This document shows positions 434-64,000 of a stretch of 64,000 nt of DNA, one piece after another; the first letter of the stretch is position 1, and each line of letters begins with the position of its first letter. The stretch covers positions 2,018 through 66,017 of the forward strand of contig JACOWS010000004.1 in assembly GCA_016176685.1 (NCBI GenBank), written 5' to 3'. The position numbers were made by a program, and so were the translations under genes. Source of the DNA: Patescibacteria group bacterium. Its GTDB lineage: Bacteria; Patescibacteriota; Minisyncoccia; Phycocordibacterales; SBAW01. The notes under the pieces are model-generated. The model saw only the letters and a list, made by a program, of their open reading frames with translations. It had not been told where the DNA came from and ran no database searches.

Positions 434-1366
434 ATGGACCTCGTCACCACAAAAAGAATTTTCCGTGCTGGTTTCCTGGACTTTTGGCGCAACGGGTTTG
501 TATCGCTTGCGGCCATACTCATGATGATATTCACCCTCTTTACCATCGGCATGGCGATGTTTACCGGAGTGATACTCCAAACCACTCTCCAGGAGTTTAG
601 AGATAAAGCCGACATGAACGTATACTTCACCACCGATGCGCCGGAAGAGCGCATAGTGGAGGTACAGGCGTCGCTCAAAGCCCTACCGGAGGTTGCCGAG
701 GTCTCTTACGTATCGCGCGAGGAGGCGCTGGCCGCCTTCCGCGAGCGGCATCAAAACAACCAGCTTATACTCCAAGCGCTCGAGGCGCTGGGCGACAACC
801 CGCTTGGCGCGGTCTTAACCGTCAAGGCAAAAGACCTTTCGCAATACGACTCCATCGCTAACTTTTTAAACGGGCAGGGGGCACTCCAGGGCGGGCAGAC
901 GTCGGTTATCGACAAGATAAACTACTACGACGCGGCGCATCGCGTCGCCATAGACCGGCTGGGTGCGGTAACTGACTCGGCGCGGTGGATAGGGCTTATC
1001 ATCATACTTATTTTTGTAGCCGCTACCATCGCCATTTCGCTCAACACCATGCGGCTTGCCATATACTCTTCCCGCGATGAAATATCCATCATGCGGCTGG
1101 TGGGGGCGGGGCAGGCATACATTCGGGCGCCGTTTATCGTAGAGGGGGTGCTGGTGGGGCTTTCGGCATCGCTGGTAACCCTGCTCTTGTTCTATCCGCT
1201 AACCTGGTGGCTCGGCTCTGCCACGCAAGACTTTTTTGGCGGCATCAATGTCTTTTACTACTACCTTTCTAACTTCCCGCTCTTTTTTGGAGTGTTAGTG
1301 GGTTCCGGAGTGCTCTTGGGCGCGGTTGCAAGCTACCTCGCCGTGCGGCGATACCTAACTATCTAG
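434..1366 (+). CDS. ftsX: Cell-division permease FtsX
   Basis: Immediately downstream of ftsE. It has one N-terminal TM, a periplasmic domain and three C-terminal TMs, the typical FtsX layout. The ATG at 434 is preferred over the GTG at 401, which overlaps ftsE. Confidence 0.75.
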   Translation: MDLVTTKRIFRAGFLDFWRNGFVSLAAILMMIFTLFTIGMAMFTGVILQTTLQEFRDKADMNVYFTTDAPEERIVEVQASLKALPEVAEVSYVSREEALAAFRERHQNNQLILQALEALGDNPLGAVLTVKAKDLSQYDSIANFLNGQGALQGGQTSVIDKINYYDAAHRVAIDRLGAVTDSARWIGLIIILIFVAATIAISLNTMRLAIYSSRDEISIMRLVGAGQAYIRAPFIVEGVLVGLSASLVTLLLFYPLTWWLGSATQDFFGGINVFYYYLSNFPLFFGVLVGSGVLLGAVASYLAVRRYLTI

Positions 1367-1367
1367 T

Positions 1368-3011
1368 ATGCCTAAATATATTTTTATCGTGGGCGGTGTT
1401 ATGTCGGGTATCGGCAAAGGCATCGCCTCCTCCGCCATTGGGCGCATACTCAAGAGCAAAGGTTTTAGCGTTACCGCGATAAAAATAGACCCGTACATTA
1501 ACGTTGACGCCGGCACGATGAACCCAACCGAGCACGGCGAGGTGTTTGTGCTTGACGACGGCTACGAAACCGACCAAGACATGGGCAACTACGAGCGCTT
1601 CTTGGGAGAAACACTGCCAAGCATCAACTACATGACCACCGGCCGGGTATACCAGGAGATTATCCGCCGCGAGCGCAACCTCGAGTATGGCGGCAAAAAT
1701 GTGGAGGTGGTGCCCCACGTGCCGCTGGAGGTTATCCGCCGCATAGAAGAGGCACAAAAACTGGCCCGGGCCGACGTAACGCTCGTGGAAATTGGCGGCA
1801 CCATCGGCGAGTACCAAAACATCATCTTTTTGGAGGCGGCGCGCATGCTCAAACAAAAGCACCCCAAAGACGTTGCAGTAGTGATGGTCTCTTATGTGCC
1901 GATACCGCGCAACATCGGCGAGATGAAGACCAAACCGACGCAGTATGCCAGCCGGGAGCTTAACTCGGCGGGGCTCCAAGCCGACATCATACTCGCGCGC
2001 GCGGAGGTTGCCTTGGACCAAAAGCGCAAAGATAAAATAGCCACCTTTTGCAATGTGGCGCCCGACAGGGTCATCTCGGCTCCCGACGTAGAGAGTATCT
2101 ACGATGTGCCGCTCAATTACGAAAAAGACAATTTGGGCAACATACTCTGCCGGGTGCTGGGGCTCTCGGAGAAAACAAGCAATCTCAAAGATTGGGAAGC
2201 GTTTGTCGCAAAAAGTAAAAACGGCACCGCGGCGGTGCCTATTGCCGTGGTGGGGAAGTACTTTAACTCCGGCGACTTCGTGCTCTCCGACGTATACATT
2301 TCGGTACTCGAGGCGCTCAAAGCCGCCGCCTACCATCTTGACCTCAAGCCCGACATTACCTACCTAAACTCAAAAGACTTCGAGGCGGGCACGATGCCGC
2401 TCTCGGCGCTCGACCAGTATGCCGGCGTGCTTATCCCCGGCGGCTTTGGCGAGACCGGGGTCGAGGGCAAGATAAAGGTCATCGAGTACGTCCGCGAGAA
2501 AAAAATTCCGTACTTCGGGCTGTGCTACGGCATGCAACTGGCGGTGGTGGAGTATGCGCGCCACATGGCGGGGCTCGCTCAAGCGCATACCACAGAGATA
2601 CAGCCGGACACAGCGTATCCGGTTGTTATGGTGATGGAAAGCCAAAAAGAAAATGTGGCAAAGGGAAAGCTCGGCGGCACGATGCGCCTCGGCGCGTATC
2701 CGGCCCTGCTTAAAGAGGGCACCATTGCGCGCGAAGCGTATAAAAAAGACACCATTTCCGAAAGGCATCGCCATCGCTATGAGGTAAACCCGAAGTATGT
2801 CGGGCAGCTCCAAAAAGCGGGGCTGGTATTTTCCGGCCGCTCGCCCGACGGCGTCTTGATGGAGATAGCGGAGCTCCCCACGAGTGTCCACCCCTTCTTT
2901 CTTGGCACGCAGTTCCACCCCGAGTTTCTCTCCCGCCCTCTTTCCCCGCACCCGTTGTTTGTGGCCTTCATCAAAGCCGCCGGCCTGCGCAAGCAGGCGA
3001 GCAAAAAATAA
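1368..3011 (+). CDS. pyrG: CTP synthase
   Basis: 547 aa. N-terminal MPKYIFIVGGVMSGIGKGI synthetase domain and C-terminal glutamine amidotransferase domain with GLCYGMQ and HPEF motifs. Confidence 0.95.
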   Translation: MPKYIFIVGGVMSGIGKGIASSAIGRILKSKGFSVTAIKIDPYINVDAGTMNPTEHGEVFVLDDGYETDQDMGNYERFLGETLPSINYMTTGRVYQEIIRRERNLEYGGKNVEVVPHVPLEVIRRIEEAQKLARADVTLVEIGGTIGEYQNIIFLEAARMLKQKHPKDVAVVMVSYVPIPRNIGEMKTKPTQYASRELNSAGLQADIILARAEVALDQKRKDKIATFCNVAPDRVISAPDVESIYDVPLNYEKDNLGNILCRVLGLSEKTSNLKDWEAFVAKSKNGTAAVPIAVVGKYFNSGDFVLSDVYISVLEALKAAAYHLDLKPDITYLNSKDFEAGTMPLSALDQYAGVLIPGGFGETGVEGKIKVIEYVREKKIPYFGLCYGMQLAVVEYARHMAGLAQAHTTEIQPDTAYPVVMVMESQKENVAKGKLGGTMRLGAYPALLKEGTIAREAYKKDTISERHRHRYEVNPKYVGQLQKAGLVFSGRSPDGVLMEIAELPTSVHPFFLGTQFHPEFLSRPLSPHPLFVAFIKAAGLRKQASKK

Positions 3012-3314
3012 TTTTTCAGAACTTATAAAGCACGTTATCATTTCAATAGAATATTTTTAATTTAGCTATAGCTTAATTAAAAATATATTATTTTAAACTA
3101 AAGTAACGTGCGGAAATTAGAAAATCTGCTACAATTTCGTTGTTGTTAGCAATTGCCGGGTCGTCCCTGGCCGGTAAACCCGTCCACAAAAATGCGAGTG
3201 CCGTTTGTGTTAGTGTATAGCGAGATATTTTCAACTCGGGTAGAGGCGCGGAGGCGAGAGAAATATCTAAAGAGTTATAGAGGAGCGGGAGAAAAATCCT
3301 CTATATTGAAAAAT

Positions 3315-3385
3315 TGCCAGATCGTCTAATGGTAGGACTCCTGCCTCTGGAGCAGGGTATCTTGGTTCGAATCCAAGTCTGGCAG
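3315..3385 (+). tRNA. tRNA-Gln (anticodon CTG)
   Basis: Hand-folded cloverleaf. Acceptor TGCCAGA/TCTGGCA; anticodon stem CCTGC/GCAGG with loop CTCTGGA; T-arm CTTGG-TTCGAAT-CCAAG. No encoded CCA. Confidence 0.85.
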
Positions 3386-3477
3386 CAGTCTAGTTTAGTA
3401 TCGAAGGACCTAAAGCCGTCGATAACTAGATAACTTCACCCCGTTGTGGCATACCGGCTGAGCACCGTATTCAGAAC

Positions 3478-3507
3478 ACAAAACCACCGATTAGTCGGTG
3501 GTTTTGT
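3478..3507 (+). terminator. Perfect 13-bp inverted repeat hairpin (ACAAAACCACCGA-ttag-TCGGTGGTTTTGT) downstream of tRNA-Gln
   Basis: Seen directly. Followed by TGTGTAATTG rather than a long T-run. Candidate terminator, or a boundary element of the AT-rich island. Confidence 0.5.
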
Positions 3508-3589
3508 GTAATTGACCTCATTTAGTACTATATGATACGCTCTGTTGAACCAGTTGTTTTATTTGTAAGGGCGTGATATATATGCAAGT

Positions 3590-3823
3590 ATGCAAAAAGG
3601 AGATAATAAAAACGAATCATCAAGAGAAAGGTTTCGCCGCCTGGCTACCCTTAGGACGAATGGGGTTCTAAAGCGACTGAAGGTTCTGGGTAATTGTTCA
3701 AATCGCCACGCCTACGAATACGATGAGGAGGATATTGATAAGATTTTTTCCGAGATTGAGCGCAAGGTTAAGGAATCTAAAGCAAAATTTCATTTCCCCA
3801 AAAAGCGGGAGTTTAAACTATGA
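3590..3823 (+). CDS. Small basic hypothetical protein (77 aa), first ORF of AT-rich island 1
   Basis: ORF track only. AT-rich codon usage matches the neighbouring island genes. It ends 10 nt before the GHKL ATPase gene. No recognisable domain. Confidence 0.35.
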   Translation: MQKGDNKNESSRERFRRLATLRTNGVLKRLKVLGNCSNRHAYEYDEEDIDKIFSEIERKVKESKAKFHFPKKREFKL

Positions 3824-3832
3824 ACTAATCTT

Positions 3833-5626
3833 ATGTCTAACATACTCACGGATATTAAAACTGAACAAATAGGAGCCGACTTGTCGAAGGTCGTTGATAG
3901 AGTTTCAAAACAATATGACCGCCCGGATATTGCTTTTCAGAAAGAAGCAATCCAAAATTCTTGGGATGTTCGCAGTGATAAAAAGGAGGGGAAAGAGTGG
4001 CTATTTAAAATTTATGAATATAAGGACGGAAATCAGAAGACTCACGTCGTTGTAGAAGATTTTGGGACAAAGGGAATGAACAAAGAAAGGTGGGAGGCCT
4101 TTTCCTCACTATGGCGTCCTAAAAAAGATCGTGATGATGCTGGTGGAAAAGGACAAGGAAAGTTTGTATTGATGAACGCCTCCCAAGAACACGTTTTATT
4201 TGTGGAAAGTGTGAGTGATGATGCTGGTTATATTTGTAAATTTCTTCAGGATGGTAAAAAGAGTAGAGATGAAGAAAATTTCCAAATTTTTAAACATATT
4301 CCAAGCGTTAAACCCCTTGAGCACAAAGGAAGCAGAATTTGGGTATATGACGTTCGAGATGATTTTTTAAAAACACTACATTCCGAGGAATTTGCAGATT
4401 CAATAATAGAATGCTGGTGGCAAGTACTCGGACCCAGATTTAATGGAAAAATTTCTCTGTTTGATAAGGAGGTTGTGTATAAACCTCTTCCGTCCCCAAC
4501 GGAAGAAATAACCTTGTTTGAGAATCATCAGGTTGATGGGTTTGGCCGGATAAAAAGGCTTTGTCTCAGTTTTTATGCAGATAAAGTTCCGTCGGCTTTC
4601 GATGGAGTGATGGTTCAGCGAGCCAATATGATGATCGTTAAAATTCCCTTTGAAGTGCATGACAAAGAATATCAAGGTCGCTTTTCAGGATATATAGAAT
4701 TTGATGAAACGTTGGAAAAAGAGTTGAAGGAAATAGAAAGAAATGATCACTGTAGTTTTCAATATGAATCACCATGGAAAGAAATTAAGGTTCTTATAAA
4801 AGACGAGGTTAGTAAATTTATTACAAAGATCGTTCCATCGAAAGAACAACGCAAAACGATAAATATAAAAAATCTTGCCGAAGTTATTCAAAAAGCAAAC
4901 CAAATTATTGATGAATACTGTCCGGAAATTCTTGGTGGCGGAACAGTTGTGCCGCCGATTACTCCAAGGCCGAAGCCTCCAATCAGAATAAAACATCTTG
5001 CGGTCAATAAGAGAGAGGTGAAATGGGGCGATACAATCAAAGCGACTTGCGGGATACTTAACACTACCAGTGAGGATAAAAAGGTATCGCTTAATATTGA
5101 GATAAAAAGATTGGGAGCGAAAGTTCTTGAGGAAGAATATTCTCTAAAAATTAAAACTAGTGAATCTAAGCCGCTGAAATTAACCGAAATCAAGTTAGCC
5201 CAGAATAAATTTGATAAGGGGAAATATATTGTCCGTGCAATCTTGCGTGAACAGAGGCATGATCTTGATACTAAAACAACCAGTTTTTATCTTGAATCAA
5301 AAAGAGAGCCAGTTAAGAAAGGGTTTATCAAAGAAATTAGATTTTACGAATCTGATGAGCCGTTGAGAAATAAGCAGGTTAAAAGCGGAACTCTTGAAAT
5401 AAATTTAGGACACAAGGACTTTGCGAATATTTGGTCTGTTTTTGAAGAAAAACCAAATATTCAGACTAAACAGATTGGTTTCTTCATAATGAAACTTTGT
5501 CTCGACGAGGCAGTAAGAGAGCTGTTTAAATTGAAGTTAAAAGATGAGAGTTCGAAGGACATAGACGATATTGTTCAAGAAGTTAAAGAAATTCAAGATA
5601 GAATGTACTACGATGTCCATGCCTAA
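3833..5626 (+). CDS. GHKL/Bergerat-fold ATPase (MORC-like HATPase_c_3 family) with long C-terminal extension
   Basis: N-terminus carries Bergerat motifs: motif I EAIQNSWDV (ExxxNxxD), motif II VEDFGTKGM (DxGxG) and the G2 box GGKGQGKF (GxxGxG). 597 aa, about 37% GC, unlike the flanking genes. Confidence 0.75.
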   Translation: MSNILTDIKTEQIGADLSKVVDRVSKQYDRPDIAFQKEAIQNSWDVRSDKKEGKEWLFKIYEYKDGNQKTHVVVEDFGTKGMNKERWEAFSSLWRPKKDRDDAGGKGQGKFVLMNASQEHVLFVESVSDDAGYICKFLQDGKKSRDEENFQIFKHIPSVKPLEHKGSRIWVYDVRDDFLKTLHSEEFADSIIECWWQVLGPRFNGKISLFDKEVVYKPLPSPTEEITLFENHQVDGFGRIKRLCLSFYADKVPSAFDGVMVQRANMMIVKIPFEVHDKEYQGRFSGYIEFDETLEKELKEIERNDHCSFQYESPWKEIKVLIKDEVSKFITKIVPSKEQRKTINIKNLAEVIQKANQIIDEYCPEILGGGTVVPPITPRPKPPIRIKHLAVNKREVKWGDTIKATCGILNTTSEDKKVSLNIEIKRLGAKVLEEEYSLKIKTSESKPLKLTEIKLAQNKFDKGKYIVRAILREQRHDLDTKTTSFYLESKREPVKKGFIKEIRFYESDEPLRNKQVKSGTLEINLGHKDFANIWSVFEEKPNIQTKQIGFFIMKLCLDEAVRELFKLKLKDESSKDIDDIVQEVKEIQDRMYYDVHA

Positions 5627-6179
5627 AAAAGACAACTCAAAACCGGAGTCAAAGATTGGTTTGGGTGAAAAAACTGACTCCGGTTACAAATATTCGTCGC
5701 GAATAAATTTTAAGGAAGATTTATCACTTCAAATTGCAAAGTTAATGCAAGAAAAAAAAGCGAAAGATGAGCTAGAAACTTATGTTGAGCAAATTCGTAA
5801 AATTTCTTCGCGATTTAAAAATAAGGATAAAAACCTCGATTACTATACAGCTGTTGGCAAAGTTTTATTTTTTTTAAGCAGTGATAGCTTTAAGAACATA
5901 AAACCTTACAGCGTATTTAGAAGATTGATTGATGAAGTTCCCGATATATTGCCCGGATTAGACACGAAAAGAATACAAGATCATTTGATGATGATGTACA
6001 GAATTGGCGGGCTAGACGAAAATATTTTGAGTAAAGCGACATGGGAACAGTGGTATGAAATATCGAAGTTCAAAAATGCCATAAACAATCGGAGGGTGTT
6101 AAATAGAATACTTACGGCAAGCGGTAGTGCTTCTGGTCCTGATTTACGCAAAAAGATAGAATCTATACTAGGTAAGTAA
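5613..6179 (+). CDS. Hypothetical protein (189 aa), translationally coupled partner of the GHKL ATPase
   Basis: ATG at 5613 overlaps the upstream stop at 5624-5626 by 14 nt. Same AT-rich composition. No recognisable domain. Confidence 0.6.
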   Translation: MSMPKKDNSKPESKIGLGEKTDSGYKYSSRINFKEDLSLQIAKLMQEKKAKDELETYVEQIRKISSRFKNKDKNLDYYTAVGKVLFFLSSDSFKNIKPYSVFRRLIDEVPDILPGLDTKRIQDHLMMMYRIGGLDENILSKATWEQWYEISKFKNAINNRRVLNRILTASGSASGPDLRKKIESILGK

Positions 6180-6213
6180 AACTTGTCGCCGCAAATTTTC
6201 GTTTCTCAAGCGA

Positions 6214-6256
6214 GGGCGCGGCGGAAGAGGGGTGTGGGGGGAATTCCGCCGCGCCC
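6214..6256 (+). terminator. GC-rich 11-bp perfect inverted repeat (GGGCGCGGCGG ... CCGCCGCGCCC) near the right (6.2 kb) end of AT-rich island 1
   Basis: Seen directly, 35 nt after the stop of the island operon. A second GC hairpin (CCGCC...GGCGG) follows at about 6267-6289. Confidence 0.45.
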
Positions 6257-6418
6257 GAGCGTTCCGCCGGAGCGAAGCGGAGGCGGTCAGTCGTCCGGAT
6301 TCGTTTGGTAAGAAGTTCGGATTTTGTTCAAGAGACACAGCCGAGGTTGGATCGGCCTGTGGATCCGGCGACGCGAGATTCTCCGTCCCGCCGCTTTGCA
6401 GTATACTTAAGGCGACGT

Positions 6419-44899: not shown

Positions 44900-44984
44900 G
44901 GAGGGTTCGCATAGCGGTCTAGTGCGCACGCTTGGAAAGCGTGTGTGGAGCAATCCACCAAGGGTTCGAATCCCTTACCCTCCG
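44900..44984 (+). tRNA. tRNA-Ser (anticodon GGA), type II with long variable arm
   Basis: Acceptor GGAGGGT/ACCCTCC; 3-bp D-stem; anticodon loop TTGGAAA; long variable arm; T-arm AAGGG-TTCGAAT-CCCTT. The ORFs 44922..45443 and 44932..45156 overlapping it are rejected. Confidence 0.8.
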
Positions 44985-45487
44985 CAGAAAGAAACTTCCG
45001 AATCCGAAAGGTGGGAAGAAGCCGCTGCCTGCGGCGCGGGCGTGGGCAAAAGAGCCCGTCGCTTCGCGACGAATTGGGACGGGACGGGTGCGGCGAAATG
45101 GGCGGATTTGTCACGAACCAGCGGGTTCGTTCCGATTTTTTGGACGAACGACTTGATTTGGTACAAATCAGAGGAGGAGGACAAAAAATTGGCTTGTTTC
45201 GTATCTAAAGATAAGGGGGACAGGCACAGTATTGACATGATATGCTTCACGCATGGCTCAATCAAATGGTGGAAAAGTACCAGCTTGAGTCTACAGTCAG
45301 ACCACTTGGTCGGCCGAAGAAGTCCTAAAATTGTGCCTGTCCCCGTATTCCGTATTTCTGTGCCTGTCCCCGTATTTGTCCCCGTATTCGTATTCCTTCC
45401 TGAGCAAGGAGGCACTCCGCGCTCTCCAACGTATACTCAATAAGATGTTGGAATGACATGTGCATAAACTCTTCTATTCTCAGTACC

Positions 45488-45529
45488 AGCTCGCCAAGTA
45501 GAAAACGAACGGCGAGCTTTCTTTTTTAT
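45488..45529 (+). terminator. Rho-independent terminator (AGCTCGCC-loop-GGCGAGCT + TTCTTTTTTAT)
   Basis: 8-bp GC-rich stem followed by a T-run, seen directly. Ends an ORF-poor, about 540-nt, segment downstream of tRNA-Ser. Confidence 0.65.
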
Positions 45530-45631
45530 AAATTCAAAGAGCGAGAATTTGCCGCCCCATACTTCGCCAAGGCTTCGTAGGGCGAGCGTGACGCAACCTG
45601 TCAAGGTTTGCGAGGGCGACCCATTGAAATC

Positions 45632-45865
45632 ATGTATTATAAAAATATGATTAAAAAATTACCTTTAGGAAAATACGAGCACTACAAGGGGAAACAATAT
45701 GAAGTTATTGGAGTTGCAAAACACAGCGAAACTCTGGAAGAACTGGTAGTTTATCGAGCTTTGTATGGGGAACACAGTTTATGGATTAGGCCACTGGATA
45801 TGTTTTTAGAAACGGTAGAAATTGAGGGCAAGAAAATCCCAAGATTCAAGTTTATAGAAAAGTAA
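45632..45865 (+). CDS. DUF1653 domain protein
   Basis: LGKYEHYKGKQYEVIGVAKHSETLEELVVYRALYG...WIRPLDMF matches DUF1653. Start is either 45632 or 45647. Confidence 0.65.
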   Translation: MYYKNMIKKLPLGKYEHYKGKQYEVIGVAKHSETLEELVVYRALYGEHSLWIRPLDMFLETVEIEGKKIPRFKFIEK

Positions 45866-45882
45866 GTAGTATAGGTAGTATC

Positions 45883-46362
45883 ATGTCTTTGCGTCTTATG
45901 GTTGCGCTCACCGGTGTGGCCCTGCTTGTGGTAGCGTTTGGTATGCACTTTGCTTCCACGGAGTATCCAAAAATGCAAACAAAATTACCGACAACCACGG
46001 TAATAATAGGCCCCGTCGTTGTTCTTGTAGAAGTCGCTTCGACCGACATTGCAAGGCGACAGGGCCTTTCCGGCAGAGCCACTCTAGAGGAGGGGAGTGG
46101 TATGCTGTTTGTGTTTGATACGGAAGGGGAATGGGGTATCTGGATGAAGGACATGCACTTTCCGATAGACATCATTTGGGCAAGCCAAGATGGCACCGTG
46201 GTTACCGTTGCCAAAGATATATCGCCCGATACCTACCCACAGGCGTTTTATCCGAGTGTCCCGGCGCGCTATGTACTTGAGGTGCCCGCAGGGTTTGTTG
46301 CGGCGCACGATGTTGCAGAGGGTTCTCGTTTGAGTATTGAAAATGCAAACGCTCCGCGGTAG
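45883..46362 (+). CDS. DUF192 domain protein
   Basis: LFVFDTEGEWGIWMKDMHFPIDIIW matches DUF192 (COG1430). Confidence 0.65.
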   Translation: MSLRLMVALTGVALLVVAFGMHFASTEYPKMQTKLPTTTVIIGPVVVLVEVASTDIARRQGLSGRATLEEGSGMLFVFDTEGEWGIWMKDMHFPIDIIWASQDGTVVTVAKDISPDTYPQAFYPSVPARYVLEVPAGFVAAHDVAEGSRLSIENANAPR

Positions 46363-60561: not shown

Positions 60562-60652
60562 ACTGTTTACACGGAGTTTGTCGAAATGTGGTCACAAATA
60601 ACTTTTTGCCGTCACAAAAAGTTTTCGCGACCCCGGCTCGCGGCCGCACTAG

Positions 60653-60725
60653 TGCGCGGTGCAGGACTTGAACCTGCGACCCTCCCCACGTCAAGGGGAT
60701 GCTCTACCAACTGAGCTAACCGCGC
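60653..60725 (-). tRNA. tRNA-Val (anticodon GAC)
   Basis: Acceptor GCGCGGT/ACCGCGC; anticodon arm TCCCC-TTGACGT-GGGGA; T-arm GCAGG-TTCAAGT-CCTGC. Confidence 0.85.
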
Positions 60726-60800: not shown

Positions 60801-61076
60801 TTACTCGTGATGCCTGTGCACGGTAAATAAGTCGGCAAATTTTATTTTAGCGATACCAAATAGATAGATAATCTCCAAAATTCCCAAGGTGTTTACCACC
60901 AAAAGAATCACAAACCACCACGGGTGGCCGCGCTGGCCCGCATGCCACAGTGCAAGCCCTTTCCAAAACAAGCTCCACAGCAAGACCGCAACAAACCCAA
61001 GCCCGGCAAGCGGTAGCATCCAGCCGCCTGCTCCAAACCCCATTGCGTATTCAAAACTATTAAATCCACTAGCCAT
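60801..61076 (-). CDS. Small hypothetical membrane protein (91 aa)
   Basis: Two TM helices. WHAGQRGHPWWFVILL motif. Confidence 0.4.
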   Translation of the reverse strand: MASGFNSFEYAMGFGAGGWMLPLAGLGFVAVLLWSLFWKGLALWHAGQRGHPWWFVILLVVNTLGILEIIYLFGIAKIKFADLFTVHRHHE

Positions 61077-61333
61077 AAAGCGTGATGTTTATGAGTATAT
61101 ATAAATTATACCACGTGGCGAGGACGATGCCCGGAACTTTGAACCAACTGCGGCCCACCGAAGCCTTGTGCGAAGGGGGCAAACGTGGCTCAAATTCAAG
61201 TATCTTGATAAAAGCATACGCGAATTGAGGGCTTATGTTCAAGTAACATCCGTAATGGTTTGAGGTGCCTAAGCCGAAATCTGACAAGGGGCAAAATGCT
61301 GTAGATTATCCCTTAGGAAATGACAATATCTAA

Positions 61334-62083
61334 CTATAAATTAGCTTTGATTTTATCACTAATACTATTGGTCTTCTCGATAATTTTATTTCTCATCTCC
61401 TCAGTGATCTGACCAATTTCTTTGTCTGTTTTTTCTGCGTTAGCGATAATTTCATCCAGTTTATCTAGAGTCGGATTTGTAAAATTAGTTCCACTCATAA
61501 TTAACTGTAAATTAATCTGATAATTTTTGATTACGTTTATATTATCTGTTGCCATAGCACTCAATTTGTTTAACATCTCATTCCACTTTTCACATTCATC
61601 TCTGAAATACGTATCCGCATAAGCCACAACTATCTGAAATCCATCGTCAATGTCTTTCTTTGATAGGGTATCGTTGAAATCCATGAACACTTGTTTTTTC
61701 TTTATTGCATCCTGATGGCTTTTTAGAGTTTTGACAATAATGTCACTTTTTTGCTTAATTGCGATCAATTTACTTATTATTGCTAAACCATTATTTCTTA
61801 CCGATTCCCAAACATTGATGTTATAGGTTAGCTTTCTATCTTTTGTGTTCTGCCAAATACTGACCATGAGAGTAATAACTGTTAAAAATCCGAGTACAAA
61901 GTTCGCGTCAATTTTTTGTTCAGAGAGGTAATCTCTAAATGATGGGTATGCTAAATATAGACCGAAAAATAAAACAACGATTGTTATCAATATTTGTATC
62001 GTTTTTCCTTTCAAGATAGTTTTTAGGTGTAATAGGTTACTCATAATCTTAATGCTTTTTGTCATGAGGCGGATTCGGGTCAT
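61334..62083 (-). CDS. Single-pass membrane protein with coiled-coil ectodomain (hypothetical), AT-rich island 2
   Basis: N-terminal TM (IQILITIVVLFFGLYLAY), a Lys/Asn/Ile-rich body, and about 33% GC. 35-nt overlap with the upstream DUF2188 gene. Confidence 0.5.
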   Translation of the reverse strand: MTRIRLMTKSIKIMSNLLHLKTILKGKTIQILITIVVLFFGLYLAYPSFRDYLSEQKIDANFVLGFLTVITLMVSIWQNTKDRKLTYNINVWESVRNNGLAIISKLIAIKQKSDIIVKTLKSHQDAIKKKQVFMDFNDTLSKKDIDDGFQIVVAYADTYFRDECEKWNEMLNKLSAMATDNINVIKNYQINLQLIMSGTNFTNPTLDKLDEIIANAEKTDKEIGQITEEMRNKIIEKTNSISDKIKANL

Positions 62084-62291
62084 GTCCTGGAGCTACGGTG
62101 TCACTGTCTCGGATAGGTCCTTTTGGAGTATGGATTCTTACTTCACCGCCACTGGTATTCGCAGAGAATCGTTTTGCCGCTTTTTCTGCTTCAGCTTGAG
62201 TATCATAATAACCAGCAGCTCGATCTGCTCCTTCTCGCTTTGCTTTCCAGTCGCCCGATTCTTTGTCTTTTGTAACGTGATAATTTGACAT
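62049..62291 (-). CDS. DUF2188 domain protein
   Basis: MSNYHVTKDKESGDWKAKREGADRAAGYYDTQAEAEKAAKRFSANTSGGEVRIHTPKGPIRDSDTV matches the DUF2188 pattern. Confidence 0.65.
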   Translation of the reverse strand: MSNYHVTKDKESGDWKAKREGADRAAGYYDTQAEAEKAAKRFSANTSGGEVRIHTPKGPIRDSDTVAPGHDPNPPHDKKH

Positions 62292-62347
62292 GGTTTTTGT
62301 GGATAACTTAACTTGTATACATTCTAATTATCATCTATACTATCAGC

Positions 62348-64000
62348 ATGCTCACAAAAAAGCAAGTGCAAGTGCTTGATTTCATCAAATCTTATAGATC
62401 AAAGCATGAGTATGCCCCCTCTCTTGAGGAAATAAGGCAAAAATTTAAACTAGCTTCTGCTTCCACATCTCACTATTACATCAGCAAACTCCAAGATGCT
62501 GGCTTTTTAAATAAGGAGCACAATCAACCCCGGGCTGTCTCCACAGTAGAAGCAAAGCAAATGATAGAGATTCCTATTCTTGGGGCAATTGCCGCTGGTC
62601 AACCCATTGAGGCCATAGAAATTTCCGATGAGACTATCACGATTGCAAAGGATGAAATTGGTAAGCAAGGAAAGCATTACGCTCTGCGTGTTCAAGGTAG
62701 CAGTATGATTGATGAGGGTATTTTTGATGGTGACATTGTTGTAATCCGCAAACAAGAGGTAGCAGAAAATGGTCAGACCGTTGTAGCAGTCATTGATGAT
62801 AACGAAGCAACACTCAAAAAGCTGTACCGTGAAAATGGGAAGTTCAGACTCCAGCCGGCAAATCCGACACTTTTCCCAATATATCGTGACGAAGTTGAAG
62901 TAAGAGGGGTAGTTGTAAAAATCATTCGCAATCTTGAATCGCAACTGGATCAAGGGCAATCAAGAGATGAAAAGTATGTCCGTAAAATAGATTATTCATG
63001 GGATTACAGAGGAGAAAAAACAAAATCATACACACATGGAATACATACCTATCCTGCAATGTTCATTCCGCAAGTTGGGCGAAGATTATTAGAAACTTAT
63101 AGTAAAGAGGGTGATACGATTTGTGATATCTTCTGTGGTTCCGGTTCAGCTTTAGTCGAAAGTAGATTGATTGGAAGAAATGCCTACGGCATTGATCTTA
63201 ATCCTTTGGCTATTTTTCTTGCGAAAGCAAAGACAACTCCGATCAATCCTCAAAAATTAACAAAGGAGTATATCGCTTTGTTAGATCGAGTAGAAAAAAT
63301 TAAAGATAACGAGATAAAAAGGCCAGATTTTAAGAATATTGATTTTTGGTTCAAAAATAAGGTAATAATTAAACTTGCAAAATTAAAGAAAACTATACGT
63401 GCAATAAAAGATGAGACGATTCAGAATTTCTTGATGGTCGCTTTTAGTGAGACAGTTCGCTATTCCTCAAACACAAAGACCGGTGAGTTTAAACTGGTTC
63501 GGGTTAAAGGCGACAAATTGGAAAAACATGATCCGGACGTCATTGGTATATTTCGCAAACACGCTGAAAAAAATATAGCTGGAATGACTGAATTCTACAA
63601 AGATGCCAAAAAGGATTCGTGGACAAAAATAATCTATGGGGATTCTTCAAAAGATAATGGGATTAAAGCCAATTCTATTGATTGCATTGTTACCTCACCC
63701 CCATACGGCGATAGTCGCACCACAGTAGCTTATGGACAGTTTTCACGCCTTTCTGCTCAATGGATTGATGTGTTTGAGGATCCAAATGACGCCTCAGGGG
63801 TAGATAACGACCTTCTTGGCGGTAGAGCTACTAAAAATTTAATTCATGCACTCTCATCTGCTTATCTCAAAGAATCCTTAGAAAAAATTGCTAAGCAAGA
63901 CGAGGCAAGGGCAAAAGATGTATTGAGCTTTAATCTCGGATTGAATGAGTGTTTGAAGCAGGCTCATAGAATCCTTAAACCAGGAAAGTATTTTTGCCTT
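62348..64000 (+). CDS. LexA-like repressor (wHTH + S24 self-cleaving peptidase) fused in frame to a DNA amino-methyltransferase domain (3' truncated by window edge)
   Basis: Not in the ORF track because there is no stop in the window. By hand translation from the ATG at 62348 the frame stays open for 551 aa. Residues 1-197 are LexA-like (HTH; AAGQP cleavage site at about 82-86; GSSM Ser119; EATLKKL Lys157). From about residue 214 it is MTase-like (DYSWDY...HTYPAMF...DIFCGSGS motif I at 262-267, GIDLNPLA, SPPY motif IV at 450-453, RILKPGKYF). Confidence 0.55.
   Translation, partial: MLTKKQVQVLDFIKSYRSKHEYAPSLEEIRQKFKLASASTSHYYISKLQDAGFLNKEHNQPRAVSTVEAKQMIEIPILGAIAAGQPIEAIEISDETITIAKDEIGKQGKHYALRVQGSSMIDEGIFDGDIVVIRKQEVAENGQTVVAVIDDNEATLKKLYRENGKFRLQPANPTLFPIYRDEVEVRGVVVKIIRNLESQLDQGQSRDEKYVRKIDYSWDYRGEKTKSYTHGIHTYPAMFIPQVGRRLLETYSKEGDTICDIFCGSGSALVESRLIGRNAYGIDLNPLAIFLAKAKTTPINPQKLTKEYIALLDRVEKIKDNEIKRPDFKNIDFWFKNKVIIKLAKLKKTIRAIKDETIQNFLMVAFSETVRYSSNTKTGEFKLVRVKGDKLEKHDPDVIGIFRKHAEKNIAGMTEFYKDAKKDSWTKIIYGDSSKDNGIKANSIDCIVTSPPYGDSRTTVAYGQFSRLSAQWIDVFEDPNDASGVDNDLLGGRATKNLIHALSSAYLKESLEKIAKQDEARAKDVLSFNLGLNECLKQAHRILKPGKYFCL

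Follow-up and report, generated by a model that had tools for sequence, protein, structure and literature searches.

What is the AT-rich block that follows the pyrG and tRNA-Gln genes in contig JACOWS010000004.1, how did it arrive there, and what does it carry? These questions were addressed in a stretch of 64,000 nucleotides of that contig (hereafter the window), which belongs to a metagenome-assembled genome (MAG) of the Patescibacteria group with a guanine + cytosine (GC) content of about 53% (locus tag HYS79_02215). An original prediction, made from the sequence alone, had described a horizontally acquired island next to a tRNA gene, of a kind that often carries defence genes. The present analysis indicates that the block, at positions 3510-6184, is very probably a horizontally acquired foreign cassette. 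It consists of an operon and its promoter only and is not a classical tRNA island with integrase and attachment (att) sites. Its three genes, here termed orf1, orf2 and orf3, include one that very probably encodes an ATPase of the GHKL family, and the reading favoured overall, with moderate confidence, is that of a transferred GHKL ATPase operon acting as a defence or genetic-conflict module. The island as such is ordinary, since small foreign islands are common in Patescibacteria (PMC12455944). Its interest lies in the cargo, a conserved module spanning several phyla, all of whose proteins are missed by current annotation resources.

Composition and boundaries of the block

The block and its landmarks are the following.

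3315-3386, forward strand: tRNA-Gln, anticodon CTG (ARAGORN; Rfam tRNA model, 60.4 bits)
3476-3490 and 3495-3509, forward strand: perfect hairpin with a 4-nt loop, arms ACACAAAACCACCGA and TCGGTGGTTTTGTGT
3510-6184, forward strand: AT-rich block, very probably foreign, with promoter and three-gene operon (GC content, tetranucleotides)
3554-3582, forward strand: putative promoter, -35 box TTGTTT (3554-3559), 17-nt spacer tatttgTAAGGGcgtga, -10 box TATATA (3577-3582)
3590-3823, forward strand: orf1, 77 aa, a small basic protein (alignment of homologues)
3833-5626, forward strand: orf2, 597 aa, very probably a GHKL ATPase (motifs, AlphaFold2 model, Foldseek)
5613-6179, forward strand: orf3, 188 aa (alignment, AlphaFold2 model; the ATG at 5613 agrees with the homologues)
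6214-6226 and 6244-6256, no strand assigned: perfect GC-rich inverted repeat, arms of 13 bp, loop of 17 nt (repeat scan)

The predicted drop in GC beyond tRNA-Gln is pronounced, with 0.366 over 3510-6184 against 0.533 +/- 0.031 in the other windows of 2.67 kb (z = -5.4). In 300-bp windows, values of 0.30-0.41 extend from about 3450 to 6150, and both flanks, the left one being pyrG, lie at 0.55-0.60. Tetranucleotide analysis, which had been proposed as a check, ranks the block as the top outlier of the window (L1 distance 0.587, median 0.201). The distinctive AT-rich codon usage reported for the three genes is also real, GC at third codon positions (GC3) being 0.42, 0.33 and 0.34 in orf1, orf2 and orf3, respectively, and 0.63-0.80 in the neighbouring ftsX, pyrG, DUF1993, grx, crp and membrane protein genes.

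The right edge is as abrupt as described and falls at 6184; the left edge lies at about 3467-3510. The block begins 124 nt past the end of tRNA-Gln, the host-side landmark directly upstream of the insertion and the sole non-coding RNA in an Rfam scan of the block, and orf1 starts 204 bp past it. The perfect hairpin noticed at the left edge exists, with arms of 15 bp instead of the 13 bp first given. It has a GC-rich core and a T-run, and host-type composition stops there; from these features it is probably the intrinsic terminator of tRNA-Gln, possibly acting in both directions. A consensus scan did not list it. The GC-rich perfect inverted repeats placed at 6214..6256 were recovered exactly, in host-type DNA just beyond the right edge, upstream of the DUF1993 gene (Pfam E = 1.5e-44) that follows the block. 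They lack a T-run, and their arm is not repeated elsewhere in the window (six matches with up to 2 mismatches against 4.2 expected, the exact ones being the two arms only).

In line with the earlier description, the block contains three co-oriented open reading frames (ORFs) and no others, none of them integrase-like, and no phage gene. A comparison of 3340-3520 with 6141-6340, together with a repeat scan, gave no direct repeat of the tRNA 3' end above chance, and the best direct or inverted repeat across both edges scored 6.5, below the shuffle mean of 7.7. The block shares with classical tRNA-associated islands its position directly 3' of a tRNA, a sharp compositional break and accessory cargo, whereas those islands bring a tyrosine or serine integrase, a duplicated tRNA 3' end and mobility genes, and the block is a single operon of 2.7 kb. 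Elsewhere, cassettes of the same type start 104-217 bp past a co-oriented tRNA in loci L118 and L125; most other cassette loci are not beside a tRNA, so adjacency is not obligatory.

Distribution and origin of the cassette

The gene order ftsE-ftsX-pyrG is conserved among 80 pyrG relatives, with tRNA-Gln no more than 1.5 kb downstream in 27 of them (pyrG to tRNA-Gln distance 0.1-1.3 kb), and in none of the 80 do orf1-3 follow pyrG. The closest relative that has the tRNA shows no GC dip beyond it, and no homologous genome was found to carry the same genes at this locus at normal GC.

Homologues of orf2 (n = 86) have a near-constant length of about 597 aa and 45-100% identity, with a more distant branch at 27-31%. 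The genes orf1-orf2-orf3 are collinear and co-oriented in more than 20 loci, that is, in every locus long enough to judge, and remain so even at orf2 identities of 27-31%. A scan of one genome per species places the cassette in nine or more groups of phylum or class rank: Saccharibacteria, Chloroflexi/Dehalococcoidia, Cloacimonadota, Eubacteriales, KSB1, WOR-3, Ignavibacteria, Pirellulales and Peregrinibacteria. The insertion sites are unrelated. The cassette occupies the interval between polA and fpg in a Chloroflexi MAG, lies between ydjM and a DinG-like helicase gene in L118, follows a pair of helix-turn-helix (HTH) and Ymh genes in L003 (a Patescibacteria-like contig), stands beside IS1595, RhuM, a PD-(D/E)xK nuclease and an antitoxin in L009, and is directly followed in L117 by a ThsB-like TIR gene (L117 3050-3625) and two further ORFs without assignment. 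Across 17 loci, no neighbour family detected with Pfam or PADLOC is common to more than 3 of the 108 neighbouring ORFs. Neither orf2 nor one distant relative was found in IMG/VR, among the INPHARED phages or in the PLSDB plasmids.

The cassette keeps a GC content of its own, 0.30-0.45 across hosts of 0.30-0.60, being 5-15 points more AT-rich than GC-rich hosts and more GC-rich than the very AT-rich host of L021. Its closest DNA relatives are L117 and L118, with 85% and 79% identity over window positions 3654/3665-6161 only, which is coding region; the homology ends at the ORF boundaries. Both contigs have 33-40% GC (L117 being a Patescibacteria contig of 34% GC), and there the cassette matches its surroundings. 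Recurrence elsewhere, a composition of its own and absence from relatives together bear out the idea of a tRNA-adjacent, compositionally foreign block acquired horizontally. The sequence comparison is most simply read as a rather recent transfer after which the cassette has ameliorated little, the most likely donor being a low-GC Patescibacterium. The transferred unit would be the promoter and orf1-orf2-orf3, nothing more, and it would have entered the spacer that separates the probable tRNA-Gln terminator from the DUF1993 gene. As integrase, att site and terminal repeats are all lacking, entry probably took place without a dedicated integrase, probably through a recombination event that placed incoming DNA in a permissive spacer 3' of the tRNA.

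Contig breaks at both island edges in a second sample, SRR12113384, where L002 corresponds to window positions 3358-6251 and L036 starts at 6282, were rejected as a sign of island-free variants, because they lie inside the tRNA and inside the inverted repeat, the usual break points of assemblers; they are probably an assembly artefact.

Products of orf2 and orf3

The gap of 9 nt between orf1 and orf2 and the overlap of 14 nt between orf2 and orf3 indicate one operon, and the overlap suggests translational coupling of orf3. The orf2 product was divided into the following regions.

Residues ~1-200: Bergerat fold
Residues ~200-335: probable transducer/S5-like domain, followed by a linker
Residues ~384-487: immunoglobulin-like (Ig-like) beta-sandwich
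Residues 541-596: helical hairpin

With high confidence, orf2 is a GHKL ATPase. Among 43 sequences, the N box (E-x3-N-x2-D, here KEAIQNSWD) has E38 conserved in at least 90% and N42 and D45 invariant; in the G1 box (D76-x-G78-x-x-G81), E75, D76, G78, T79, G81 and M82 do not vary, and the same holds in the G2 box (G104..G107-Q-G109-K) for G104, G107, Q108, G109 and K110. A further motif reads H164-x-G166. With its ATP-binding motifs intact, the protein is predicted to be an active-looking enzyme. A Foldseek search of the PDB with the AlphaFold2 model (predicted local distance difference test, pLDDT, 83) retrieved TRAP1/Hsp90 (4e-12), Topo VI-B (8e-10) and the ATPase region of Topo II (3e-6), each with a probability of 1.00; the matches reach through the transducer, at identities of 10-13% and template modelling (TM) scores of 0.25-0.39. 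The region at ~384-487 matches Ig-like domains of glycosidases and AlkC. At the sequence level, a profile search of the PDB gave no match, Hsp90 included, and orf2 itself has no Pfam match at E <= 1, whereas about 12 of its 86 family members have a recorded match to PF13589 (HATPase_c_3).

The fold and the transducer matches place orf2 in the ATPase branch that comprises MutL, MORC, Hsp90 and the type II topoisomerases, although for the region after the GHKL domain the S5-fold transducer assignment is only consistent with the model. Members of this branch are ATP-gated dimeric clamps. The helical tail of orf2 probably mediates dimerisation. Like the Hsp90/TRAP1 and Topo VI-B/Topo II modules, orf2 combines a Bergerat fold with a transducer and would probably form an ATP-gated dimeric clamp; it differs from them in having no sequence-level match, no Toprim or Spo11-like partner and an added Ig-like domain.

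A wider orf2 superfamily comprises P0153 and about 100 other proteins of 640-800 aa (E = 1e-27 to 1e-7) without Pfam domains, and one distant relative of 666 aa weakly matches the PADLOC candidate PDC-M33A (E = 1e-4, about 80 residues).

Homologues of orf3 (n = 54) conserve the motifs YY.vGK.L.F and A(T/S)WDQWYEI.KFK and have no obvious catalytic residues. The AlphaFold2 model (pLDDT 85, predicted TM-score 0.77) is all-helical after a short N-terminal beta-hairpin. It has no match with E < 0.1 in the PDB or BFVD, and a profile search of the PDB found nothing. A weak match to DUF1016_N (PF17761; E = 8.5e-4) occurs in 1 of 31 family members and is absent from orf3 of the window. The motifs may resemble those of the N-terminal helical domain of DUF1016_N/YhcG, which we take as a lead and not as an assignment.

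The orf1 leader and its sister cassettes

The small protein encoded by orf1 is probably helical on inspection of its sequence. Its consensus, E..R.RF.RLA..RTN.VL..L.vLGNcSN...Y.Y.eedi.KIF, ends in an invariant C-terminal F-x-L. More than 800 homologues were found at 74-97% identity, about ten times the number for orf2, and orf1 is more conserved than its partners, retaining 49-60% identity where orf2 has about 28%. Although some 80% of its residues are identical, 44-65% of the conserved codons have changed synonymously, so it is the protein that is conserved, under strong purifying selection. It has no significant match in Pfam, NCBIfam, PHROGs or the PDB and no PADLOC match at all.

The region before orf1 is conserved too. 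Upstream regions from the window and from L029, L030, L118, L125, L126 and L032 were compared by eye, and across cargo types they contain TTGAC(T), a 17-nt spacer with T(G/A)TAAGG(G) and an A/T-rich -10 box. The element at 3554-3582 aligns with the TTGACT-N17-TATATA and TAAGG(G) box found upstream of orf1 homologues that head other cargo, and from this alignment we infer that it is the cassette promoter; a consensus scan did not find it. With only 7 nt separating the -10 box from the ATG, the transcript would have little or no leader. An inverted repeat over the -10 region, one half of which is the AAGGG box, is present in L117 and L126 (AAGGGTG..CACCCTT and GCAAGG..CCTTGC) and may be an operator.

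Homologues of orf1 head at least three families of GHKL ATPases, the orf2 type included. In L032-L035 (6001-8860), at a site between nrdG and an NYN-domain gene, orf1 is followed by a 531-aa HATPase_c_3 protein (Pfam 3.4e-8) and ORFs of 185 and 94 aa. In L028-31 and L126, it heads a family of 750-840 aa that is assigned to GHKL by its motifs, EKIxNxxDA (N box), DxGEG (G1) and GKFGMGG (G2). Several of these loci have a convergent N6_N4 DNA methyltransferase, and L126 has instead ORFs of 57 and 180 aa. The cassettes that pair orf1, about 80% identical to that of the window, with the 750-840-aa family are located as follows.

L028, 6001-10066
L029, 6001-10066
L030, 220-4031
L126, 5001-8374

The sister cassettes are likewise AT-rich islands in GC-rich Patescibacteria (0.39 against 0.53 and 0.40 against 0.57). 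As no significant similarity among the three orf1-linked GHKL families was detected with hmmsearch, hhalign, blastp or phmmer, they are treated as distinct. Relatives of orf1 also occur on four IMG/VR contigs, in one case upstream of a non-GHKL protein of 353 aa. A shared upstream region and orf1 before such varied cargo imply that promoter and orf1 behave as a portable leader module. This module, common to several types of GHKL cassette, is the most valuable lead of the analysis.

Variations on the arrangement were also seen. In L009, the gene of an IS1595-family transposase (10-693) lies exactly at the place of orf1 and orf2-orf3 are intact (741-3099), so some cassettes persist without orf1. 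In L026 (8108-8707, Peregrinibacteria), the orf1 domain forms the C-terminus of a mechanically called ORF of about 200 aa with an HTH-like N-terminal part. Provided that the upstream start codon is real, orf1 may here be naturally fused to a DNA-binding domain. One member of the orf1 alignment matches Sigma70_r3 (E = 1e-4), and its attribution to the L026 ORF is a guess.

Proposed function and alternative explanations

The cassette is probably an undescribed defence-type system, because orf1 heads many other AT-rich ATPase cassettes in Patescibacteria. Whether it is a defence or genetic-conflict module, and hence whether the defence cargo of the original prediction is the right description, we consider evenly poised. 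A defence role is suggested by the pattern of mobility, by the methyltransferase-linked sister cassettes, by defence-type neighbours in some loci (ThsB-TIR in L117, RhuM, nuclease and antitoxin in L009, HTH and Ymh in L003, with type II restriction-modification genes near two cassette loci) and by the literature on GHKL proteins. Prokaryotic GHKL+S5 ATPases have been predicted in systems resembling restriction-modification (PMC2292703), a GHKL-Shedu fusion has been shown experimentally to act in defence (PMC12137116), and genes transferred in Patescibacteria are enriched for defence, most transfers occurring within the phylum (PMC12455944).

Several observations weigh against this interpretation. 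No model of PADLOC-DB 2.0.0 (E <= 1), Pfam, NCBIfam or PHROGs matches orf1, orf2 or orf3, and scans of family members and distant homologues with profile libraries gave nothing significant. The cassette holds no recognisable nuclease, helicase, methylase, TIR domain or other effector, and the roles of orf1 and orf3 are drawn from conservation patterns only. Most neighbours elsewhere are housekeeping genes (DprA, TopA, EF-P, polA, fpg), which makes the defence-island context weak. On the side of transfer, the downstream regions of the 80 pyrG relatives are not syntenic and give no base-precise empty site; a true empty site is lacking because the closest pyrG relative is only 78% identical.

If the cassette does act in this way, orf2 would be an ATP-driven dimeric clamp that binds and remodels a nucleic acid or protein target, like MORC, MutL and Hsp90, orf3 a family-specific partner of orf2 giving target recognition or an effector, and orf1 a portable controller or adaptor travelling with its promoter. 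Since orf1 is nearly the same before at least three unrelated GHKL families, it probably contacts something generic and not the ATPase, which could be its own promoter DNA or a conserved component of the host or invader. This specific division of labour into clamp, partner and controller is tentative and rather unlikely to be correct. A bolder extension, which we regard as unlikely, is that promoter and orf1 mark a large undescribed class of GHKL immune systems, with at least 800 clusters, mainly in the Candidate Phyla Radiation (CPR), the orf2/orf3 type being built on a nuclease-free, ATP-dependent MORC-like clamp. Invading DNA would be trapped, compacted or silenced by this clamp, while orf1 would act as sensor of a conserved component of host or invader. 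Were this true, the class would be a prokaryotic counterpart of eukaryotic MORC silencing and a principal innate defence in bacteria most of which have no CRISPR. A defence role in itself would enlarge the few known immune systems of the CPR by a family of some size and offer a simple bacterial model of GHKL clamps that act on foreign DNA with no nuclease fused to them. As a shared controller, if it is one, orf1 would represent small regulators of mobile operons of a new class.

In one alternative explanation the genes are native, and their AT-richness stems from local constraints, for instance on expression level or amino-acid composition. The host does have other AT-rich intergenic stretches, for instance 3012-3150, but GC3 of 0.33-0.42 in the cassette against 0.63-0.80 in its neighbours, the same cassette GC in hosts of very different GC (and GC-richer than the host in L021), the 85% nucleotide identity to the cassette of a contig with 34% GC and absence from all 80 pyrG relatives make this very hard to credit. 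A foreign origin could also mean that the three genes are surviving cargo of a prophage or integrative element that targeted a tRNA and whose integrase and att sites are gone, as the position 124 nt past tRNA-Gln, two other AT-rich segments of the window that also adjoin tRNAs, the L118 and L125 cassettes 104-217 bp past a tRNA and the orf1 relatives on four IMG/VR contigs would suggest. Such a remnant is improbable given that no integrase, att repeat or phage gene was found, that DNA homology to the closest relatives stops at ORF boundaries, that some 20 other loci hold the same three-gene unit, mostly between housekeeping genes, and that orf2 is absent from IMG/VR, INPHARED and PLSDB.

The operon might instead be a toxin-antitoxin or addiction module, in which orf2 and/or orf3 would be toxic, orf1 would neutralise or autoregulate, and persistence and spread would follow from the cost of loss instead of from protection against phages. 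The compact mobile operon, in which larger genes are closely linked to a small one at the front, has that look, as do the patchy distribution, the composition of its own and the IS1595 copy at the place of orf1 in L009. Cognate antitoxins co-evolve with their toxins, however, whereas orf1 greatly exceeds its partners in conservation and is common to unrelated cargo; with no toxin-like domain, and with orf2-orf3 persisting without orf1 in L009, an addiction module is quite unlikely. A transferred function outside defence carries a similarly small probability, whether as a chaperone of the Hsp90/HtpG kind with two co-factors or as a kinase of the SpoIIAB/CapK type phosphorylating orf1 or orf3. 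TRAP1/Hsp90 is the best structural match of orf2, which has an N-middle-C layout with a helical C-terminus, and GHKL kinases regulating partner proteins are known in the control of immune operons (PMC13373217). Yet there is no sequence-level similarity to Hsp90 or any solved protein, no STAS, HTH or His-phosphoacceptor partner domain as in CapK/CapS, and a transducer domain such as that of orf2 characterises the ATPase branch. Accessory conflict genes typically show such a sporadic distribution across phyla with their composition retained, and sister orf1-led cassettes are linked to a methyltransferase.

Comparison with known systems

The literature searched contains no description of orf1, orf3 or the three-gene cassette. 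The closest class is formed by the MORC and paraMORC proteins (Iyer, Abhiman and Aravind 2008, PMC2292703), with which the cassette shares an N-terminal GHKL domain with intact motifs, a probable transducer/S5-like domain, a family-specific C-terminal extension and a wide sporadic distribution implying lateral mobility, while sister orf1-led cassettes likewise pair a GHKL protein with a DNA methyltransferase. By analogy, it may work like a paraMORC-type GHKL module, the likeness of class being drawn from motifs and fold only. There are also differences: orf2 of the window matches neither HATPase_c_3 nor any PADLOC model, its extension consists of the Ig-like domain and the helical hairpin, and partners such as orf1 and orf3 are not described in that work (PMC2292703). 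The MORC/paraMORC neighbourhood of superfamily II (SF-II) helicase, endonuclease and methylase was not found around the cassette, a methylase lying near only 2 of 17 loci, and a methylase association appears only in the sister 750-840-aa orf1-led family.

VcSduA of Vibrio cholerae, a GHKL-Shedu protein of the paraMORC3 group (PMC12137116), shares the GHKL ATPase, which there belongs to a validated anti-phage system and is proposed to gate the effector. There one protein carries the ATPase fused to a DUF4263 PD-(D/E)xK nuclease, whereas no nuclease domain is detectable in orf1-3. With the controllers of defence operons (C proteins of restriction-modification systems; CapW, CapH+CapP, as well as CapK+CapS; PMC13373217), orf1 has in common a position as small first gene, a conserved promoter and varied cargo; it differs in having no recognisable HTH, winged HTH (wHTH), WYL or STAS domain. 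CapK combines HTH, STAS and GHKL domains, an architecture that orf2 lacks, and a kinase-regulator pair of the CapK/CapS kind was rejected for want of STAS or HTH domains. As for a restriction-modification system, neither the cassette of the window nor the orthologous cassettes contain a cognate methyltransferase or endonuclease.

Other AT-rich segments of the window

Upstream of the block, the spacer between pyrG and tRNA-Gln includes an extremely AT-rich stretch at 3012-3150, a separate host-side feature with a 24-nt palindrome at 3045-3092. An ORF at 3153-3329 that runs into the tRNA matches the C-terminal part only of the GIY-YIG profile (43-73 of its 78 positions, E = 0.0024), as a truncated gene of this type would.

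A short AT-rich patch at 45401-46000, downstream of tRNA-Ser (44900-44985), contains an ORF of 85 aa (45608-45865) that appears DUF1653-like by eye. The segment at 61001-63900 is the second AT-rich segment (GC < 0.42) and second-strongest tetranucleotide outlier, runs to the end of the window and abuts tRNA-Val (60652-60725, reverse strand). All three AT-rich patches, 3510-6184 being the third, thus adjoin tRNA genes. The 61001-63900 segment holds, on the reverse strand, a 249-aa ORF with the look of a membrane or coiled-coil protein (61334-62083) and an 80-aa ORF (62049-62291) that by eye resembles DUF2188.

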